DNA from: Escherichia coli
GTDB taxonomy: Bacteria > Pseudomonadota > Gammaproteobacteria > Enterobacterales > Enterobacteriaceae
DNA length: 64,000 nucleotides
Reading direction: 5' to 3' (one strand)
Assembly: GCF_024298765.1 (NCBI RefSeq)
Contig: NZ_CP101210.1
Part shown: in pieces, positions 20,229-21,102 of the stretch
Position numbering within the stretch: position 1 is the stretch's first letter
Layout of the letters: each line of letters opens with the position of its first letter
Program-made: the position numbers and the translations under genes
The notes under the pieces: model-generated
What the model was told of the DNA's origin: nothing
The model's database searches: none
What the model saw: only the letters and a program-made list of their open reading frames with translations

Positions 20229-21102
20229 TTACCAGCGACCGGACGCGCCGCCACCGCCAGAAGAACCGCCCCCGCCGCTAAATCCGCCGCCACTTGAGCC
20301 GCCACCGGAACCGCTGTTGTCTGAATGATAACTTCTACCAGATGCTTTTTTTCTGAAGTACACATAAACAGGTAAAGACCATAATGGTGGTGAAAGTAAA
20401 AAAGAAGAAAAATACAGCAATGGAAAAAGTTTTATCGGAGAACAGGAATAAATCTAAAAGATAGATTGCTGAAATACAGACACTGCTTTTACATGCGCGA
20501 CAAAAATTACTGCCTTGATGAAAAAACCAGAAAGGGAAGAACATCACTGCAAATACCCAAAAAATAGCAAAGTAGTAATGATCGCTGGAAGACGCTGATT
20601 CACTTTCTGAAGGATTAGCCGAATATTGGTGTTGTGAAGTGAGTTGGTTATTCAAAGCGATTATAGCTAACTCTAATCCCTTAGCTAATTTTTGTTGTTT
20701 AAATGCGGGTATCATGTTGCTACGGATGATATCTCCAGCCAGAGCATCGGTTACCTTTTCTTCCAGCCCATAACCTACCTGGATGCGGACAGTGCGATCC
20801 GACCAGGCAACAATGATCAGTATCCCATCATTGCGTTTGGCATCTCCTAAACGCCAATTGTTAAAAACCCTTGTAGCATATTGTTCAATTGTCTCGTCTT
20901 TGGTTGTGGGAATAATTAATACAGCAATTTGTACTTGGGTATTATTGAAAATAGATTCTAACTTCCGCGTCAGTTCTTTCTTTTCTTGTGAGTTTAAGCT
21001 ACTCGTAAGATCCGTAACTTGTTGCTGTAATTGTGGGACAATAGTTGGTTGGGCTGCAACAAAGGAACACACGAATGTGAATATTAGTATGAAATAGCGC
21101 AT
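20229..21102 (-). pseudogene. ygcG: TPM-domain membrane protein YgcG, interrupted by a +1 frameshift in a homopolymer (or sequencing error)
   Basis: TPM-domain body and TM helix read in the frame of ORF 20335-21258 (start MRYFILIF at 21102). The Gly-rich tail ([38 protein letters not shown]) reads in the frame of ORF 20229-20420. Removing one T from the T7 run at 20346-20352 joins them into a 290-aa protein; 874 nt is not a multiple of 3. Confidence 0.6.

Follow-up and report, generated by a model that had tools for sequence, protein, structure and literature searches.

The window analysed here is a stretch of 64,000 nucleotides of Escherichia coli DNA (contig NZ_CP101210.1), in which the gene order queE, yqcG, ygcG, eno, pyrG matches that of K-12 and places ygcG in the orthologous position. 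The ygcG coding region lies on the minus strand at 20229-21102; it runs from an ATG at 21102 to a TAA at 20231-20229 and contains a +1 frameshift. A hydrophobic segment resembling a signal peptide is encoded at its beginning (minus strand, 21052-21102), followed by an intact TPM domain at 20650-21018 on the same strand (Pfam PF04536; residues 29-151, model positions 1-123 of 125, i-Evalue 7.2e-36) and by three hydrophobic, putatively transmembrane segments, also intact (minus strand, 20350-20577; residues 176-251). With a Kyte-Doolittle window of 19, the hydrophobic stretches were found at residues 3-23, 176-196, 203-221 and 224-251, all ahead of the frameshift; the signal-peptide cleavage site is a predicted one, placed from the sequence. 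Among the NCBIfam models, the only match was to Psb32, at 36.7 bits and thus under the cutoff of 160; the YqcG variants had no match.

Upstream of ygcG, the small gene yqcG (minus strand, 21116-21258) is also frameshifted; it measures 143 nt, its K-12 counterpart 141 nt. Directly past the ygcG stop codon, at 20195-20212 on the minus strand, there is a terminator-like, GC-rich hairpin, GCCAGCC-CGAA-GGCTGGC, followed by ATTTTT. Lying between the convergent genes ygcG and eno, it could act as a bidirectional terminator. A C/T polymorphism of this hairpin, at 20213, is shared with O157:H7 and other lineages. We considered the C at this position, downstream of the stop codon, as a lineage marker and rejected it: 657 genomes, including O157:H7, share it and it is not diagnostic.

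An inserted A separates the body of YgcG from its tail

The frameshift is located at a homopolymer of seven A in the coding sense, which appears as T7 on the plus strand (20346-20352). On the minus strand the sequence reads GTA CTT CAG AAA AAA AGC ATC TGG TAG, and the premature TAG, in frame 0 at 20335-20337, lies three codons past the run. The resulting product has 255 aa and ends ...CVLQKKSIW. The remainder of the gene (minus strand, 20229-20345) is an out-of-frame remnant, which consists of a Gly/Ser-rich C-terminal tail of 38 aa and the original TAA. The glycine-rich motif of this tail, ending ...GGGGASGRW, is still encoded from 20345 to 20232, in the +1 frame.

The original prediction had identified the gene as ygcG from its TPM domain, its hydrophobic segments and its Gly-rich tail, and had placed it at the coordinates given above; our analysis bears out both the identity and the coordinates. 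It had also stated that the membrane and TPM part and the tail are read in different frames. The reading of the minus strand agrees with this, as does the mechanical list of open reading frames, in which the frame-0 frame ends ...CVLQKKSIW* at 20335 and a second one, containing the tail, ends at 20229. Likewise, the span 20229-21102 does comprise 874 nt, and dropping one base of the T7 run does restore a protein of 290 aa. Once one A is removed, ygcG measures 873 nt and is equal in length to K-12 ygcG; the repaired 290-aa sequence is found in public databases as a 'YgcG family protein' on 549 contigs.

Comparison with intact ygcG alleles

We aligned the window with three other alleles, those of MMC-J-0085, SB0258h1 and K-12. 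In the nearest intact ones, MMC-J-0085 and SB0258h1, the corresponding sequence is CAG AAA AAA GCA, that is, a run of six A. K-12 ygcG reads CAG AAA AGA GCA (Lys-Arg) at this place, so that AAAAGA stands there in place of an uninterrupted run. Comparison of the run length with other E. coli alleles, which the original prediction had proposed as a check, thus gives A7 against A6 or AAAAGA, and the reading frame of the window allele is broken relative to its intact orthologs by a single inserted A. A chance pattern of open reading frames was rejected on the same alignment, which shows one 1-base insertion, A7 versus A6. These alleles suggest a history in two steps, in which a G-to-A change (Arg to Lys) would have created the uninterrupted A6 before one A was gained.

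K-12 YgcG (b2778; WP_001268460.1, annotated as a TPM domain-containing or 'YgcG family' protein) resembles its counterpart in the window in its locus, between queE/yqcG and eno, and in its architecture, with a signal peptide, PF04536, three hydrophobic segments and a Gly-rich tail ending GGGGASGRW. The two are ~95% identical in DNA across the 1151-nt region that contains ygcG. The window allele differs in having Lys-Lys where K-12 has Lys-Arg and in carrying the extra A of the A7 run, by which the frame is shifted and the tail is lost.

Among E. coli lineages, ygcG diverges strongly in its 5' third. A B2-type allele, for example, begins MRIILFLLTLWCLPVLAQQ, yet over the C-terminal ~220 residues only two positions distinguish its product from the repaired window protein. 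At least 80% of the 1151-nt query was covered in only 3,922 of the 5,073 matching genomes. The ygcG locus is, to all appearances, mosaic and recombinogenic.

Conservation of the C-terminal tail

The lost tail of 38 residues is composed of 45% Gly and 29% Ser. A search limited to the closest 120 homologous proteins returned E. coli alleles only; conservation was instead assessed on 50%-cluster representatives. This search, across 1.84 billion representatives, yielded 21,360 relatives; among the best 150 we retained the 122 full-length-like sequences, which are mutually at most 50% identical. We observed that 117 of these 122 representatives have Trp as their C-terminus, the consensus end being ...GGGG[AS]SG[RS]W, and that most alignments with distant homologs run through to the C-terminal residue in the two sequences compared. 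In this family, then, the tail counts as a conserved hallmark. Written in full, the C-terminal motif of these 117 representatives is FSGGGGxFGGGG[AS]SG[RS]W-COOH, for which we found no functional explanation. In the window this hallmark is present in the DNA at 20232-20345 but out of frame with the rest of the protein, and its loss probably impairs or abolishes YgcG function. According to the positive-inside rule, with QKK past the last hydrophobic segment, the YgcG tail is probably cytoplasmic.

The A7 allele in public genomes

We then consider how far the A7 run recurs elsewhere. Fifty-three complete RefSeq genomes are 100% identical to the window across 1151 nt; they come from chickens, turkeys, pigs, humans, wastewater and seawater, from several continents and from different laboratories. 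An exact 77-nt probe centred on A7 matched 73 complete genomes. In a collection of 15 billion proteins, the exact truncated product of 255 aa was found on 243 contigs and an exact product of 307 aa, called from the ATG of yqcG, on at least 1000 contigs; taken together, these exact products of the truncated gene are present on >1,200 contigs in public collections (NCBI, ENA, Logan). Moreover, 8 other genomes match the window at 100% identity across a 24-kb stretch, and the window assembly is therefore not an error-prone one.

The same allele has already been flagged by RefSeq. In every member of the group that was inspected, PGAP annotates ygcG as a pseudogene that spans the same 874 nt and encodes a TPM domain-containing protein marked 'frameshifted'. 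The PGAP-frameshifted ygcG of strain 104 (DDV95_RS10315), APEC O2-211 and the APEC O78:H4 strains is the window allele, identical over 1151 nt. The frameshift is thus already known at annotation level, and it is an ordinary one. In the literature, we found no paper on the ygcG frameshift, no functional study of ygcG and no phenotype; the only relevant item reports that an mgrB mutant expresses more queE once yqcG is deleted.

To census the run length, we used probes with identical 30- and 40-nt flanks in which only the run was varied, against 5,426 complete genomes. A5 was found in 0 genomes, A6 in 1121, A7 in 73 and A8 in 0. The allele family occurs in 4,140 genomes, none of which has A5 or A8; besides those with A6 or A7, the other ~2,950 of them have interrupted runs. 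Every lineage member aligned, namely FDAARGOS_1286, APEC 102026, D10, 2014C-3338 and KKo009, has A7; for SCU-171 the same 874-nt 'frameshifted' feature is given by its annotation, outside the alignment. Among the complete genomes, a repaired 1150-nt query, carrying A6 on the exact window haplotype, had no 100% match.

In the wider collection, a product combining yqcG T7 with ygcG A6 was found on ~10 contigs, versus more than 1,200 with A7, and these ~10 contigs were compared base by base to the window. Four of them (L014, L015, L018 and L021) contain other 1-bp deletions, which split queE, relA or eno, and are judged to be error-prone assemblies. Two (L016 and L017) stand further from the window, at 4-9 SNPs, and have a change at 21459 in common; a sister lineage with the ancestral A6 still in place is a plausible source for both. 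The remaining contigs, L012, L013, L019 and L020, are otherwise essentially identical to the window, L012 differing from it in two further homopolymers. L013, L019 and L020 could be true revertants rather than errors, and such revertants would be a few at most against the more than 1,200 A7 contigs.

One lineage carries the insertion

When the 24-kb stretch was used as query, exactly 72 genomes had at least 99% identity, whereas every other genome fell between 95 and 99%. Because the identities split in this way, the A7 group is a discrete lineage. The set of 73 A7 genomes defined by the probe appears to match this lineage of 72, and the linked yqcG allele is found in 75 genomes (T7 in 72 and T8 in 3); the lesion is thus common to a clade by descent. 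One member, APEC O2-211, has been described as ST117 (PMC6256689). The lineage is very young, to judge from the 8 genomes identical over 24 kb and from the rest of the best 25, which round to 100.0%. From haplotype identity we infer a single origin of the insertion, as well as the sequence in which yqcG and ygcG changed.

Two genomes show additional changes in ygcG. Besides A7, D10 has a second 1-bp deletion, from A5 to A4 in CAACAAAAATTAG (around 809 of the D10 sequence, corresponding to ~20689-20693 in the window), which reflects either continued decay of the pseudogene or a homopolymer error in the assembly. In 2012C-4502 (positions 1129-2277 of the aligned sequence, L009) ygcG is mosaic: its first ~890 nt, yqcG T7 among them, are those of the window haplotype, and its 3' end resembles K-12, having AAAAGA and lacking 3 nt in the tail, so that an intact ygcG of 289 aa results. 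The breakpoint corresponds to ~20409-20579 in the window, and a 341-aa read-through product of this allele is present on 115 contigs. This mosaic, as read from the alignment, shows recombination within ygcG; the allele would be either a recombinational repair of the frameshift or a state that precedes A7.

The upstream gene yqcG and other features of the neighbourhood

The small envelope-stress gene yqcG has two homopolymers of altered length. At 21215-21219 it has A5 versus A4 in K-12, and A5 is common to the related alleles in which ygcG is intact. At 21187-21193 it has T7 versus T6 in these same alleles; the T run is T6 in the related alleles, T7 in 72 genomes and T8 in 3 (FDAARGOS_1286, APEC 102026 and E5). 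With T8 the total change is +3, by which the C-terminal frame is restored and a product of 47 aa is obtained. With T7, the yqcG ATG reads into the ygcG frame, which is why the mechanical list contains an open reading frame of 307 aa at 21258-20335.

Just beyond queE, the annotation of the identical RefSeq genomes gives a CRISPR array, from ~22408-22800 onward in the window. Within this array, contig L012 has a patch of 80% identity to the window, pointing to differences in spacer content within the lineage. At 26596-26638 there is a terminator-like intergenic hairpin, GGTAACTTCCC...GGGAAGTTACC, followed by TTTC and T10 (26629-26638). L012 has 5 fewer T at this T10 run and one fewer A in an A8 run at ~26369-26376.

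Discussion

We conclude that the window very probably carries a genuine, inherited insertion of one base, fixed in one lineage, that truncates YgcG. The change from A6 to A7 would have arisen by slipped-strand mispairing during replication in the ancestor of that lineage, the ST117 group, which contains many avian-pathogenic strains, and A7 has been inherited vertically ever since. As a consequence of the insertion, the frame of ygcG shifts past codon 252 and translation stops three codons further on. The predicted protein of 255 aa keeps its signal peptide, its periplasmic TPM domain and its three membrane segments, and is deprived of the 38-aa Gly-rich tail.

The original prediction had left three options, a pseudogene, a phase-variable tract or a sequencing error, and only the first of them, including a genuine slipped-strand inactivation, stands. 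Homopolymers are a classic place for indel errors, and some public assemblies of the lineage do err elsewhere (the four contigs with split queE, relA or eno), so that the window could in principle derive from a genome with six A. However, an artefact would not be reproduced in independent assemblies, and A7 recurs in the 73 complete genomes, which come from many laboratories and sequencing platforms, as do its exact products on the >1,200 contigs of NCBI, ENA and Logan, while the surrounding 24 kb are 100% identical to 8 other genomes; the chance of an error in sequencing or assembly is close to negligible. A contingency tract, which would switch ygcG on and off by frequent and reversible slippage, is suggested by the position of the homopolymer in a coding region, where a change of +/-1 toggles the frame, by the few public contigs with A6 on the same background (L013, L019 and L020) and by the variation of the adjoining yqcG T run between T6, T7 and T8. 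The A7 run indeed resembles the contingency loci of Neisseria, Haemophilus and Campylobacter in that the length of a coding homopolymer sets the reading frame. Unlike these loci, it has only 7 A, shows no length polymorphism among close relatives and is fixed in one lineage. Contingency tracts are typically longer than seven A/T, and E. coli seldom uses repeat-mediated phase variation. With identical flanks, the census gave neither A5 nor A8, and A7 is limited to one lineage and invariant in all members inspected; as for the ~10 A6 contigs of the same background, outnumbered by more than 1,200 with A7, four appear error-prone and two are diverged relatives. Phase variation of ygcG is accordingly highly improbable.

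Two other readings accept the insertion and concern its effect. YgcG of full length could still be made at a reduced level, if RNA polymerase dropped one A or if tRNA-Lys slipped by +1. Either the loss of one A from the mRNA or a +1 shift on AAA-AAA-A, in which AAA pairs anew with AAA, would lead to precisely the required frame, and rescue on A runs is documented, with 11 A in Citrobacter tssM1 (PMC4256274) and at sites of 9 A/T (PMC1088944). The genes rescued in this way (Citrobacter rodentium tssM1, 11 A; Shigella mxiE; T. thermophilus dnaX, 9 A) are like ygcG in having a stop soon past the A run and a conserved C-terminal part downstream in another frame; ygcG is unlike them in the length of its run, 7 versus 9-11, and in the limitation of the arrangement to a single young lineage. 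To slip, the E. coli RNA polymerase needs at least 7 T in a row, or a still longer stretch of A (PMC6260861), and runs prone to slippage typically show counter-selection at ~9 nt (PMC1088944). The ygcG run, A7 in the sense strand, falls short of these lengths (~9 A/T or, for the E. coli enzyme, at least 7 T or more than 7 A). There is no stimulatory context either, the next 0-frame codon, AGC, being neither a stop nor rare, and the interrupted arrangement is not conserved, 1121 genomes having A6 and the rest an interrupted run. Any rescue is expected to stay at the level of background, and we regard leaky recoding as very improbable. It is also conceivable that the 255-aa protein still works as a shorter allele, the TPM domain and membrane anchor being sufficient without the tail. 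The signal peptide, the TPM domain and all three hydrophobic segments are intact, no further decay is seen ahead of the run in the 53 identical genomes, and the allele persists in a successful lineage. Little meaning can be given to the missing extra decay, because the lineage is so young. Against a functional short allele, the lost tail is among the most conserved features of the family (...GGGG[AS]SGxW in 117 of 122 representatives), and D10 carries a second 1-bp deletion inside ygcG. We therefore hold a functional short YgcG to be unlikely, with some chance of being right.

In preferring a lineage-fixed truncation of YgcG, we also considered that the adjacent, envelope-associated genes yqcG and ygcG might both have been disabled by homopolymer +1 slips in the ST117 ancestor for the reason that loss of this module was advantageous, as a slow evolutionary switch and not as simple decay. 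The short tracts would then allow rare reversals or compensating changes, such as yqcG T8, by which the frame is regained, in three strains, the few A6 'revertants' and the one mosaic repaired by recombination. Such a switch, with the changes that belong to it, seems to us very improbable.

In general terms the finding has little biological weight, as it concerns an ordinary lineage-specific frameshift, flagged by RefSeq, in an uncharacterised gene. It illustrates that homopolymer frameshifts need a check at the population level before they are called errors or phase variation. For the clinically and agriculturally relevant ST117 APEC/ExPEC lineage, ygcG A7 together with yqcG T7 provides a clean marker, and its strains are natural tail-less YgcG and YqcG-null strains in which the TPM-domain protein and the GGGG[AS]SGxW motif may be studied.
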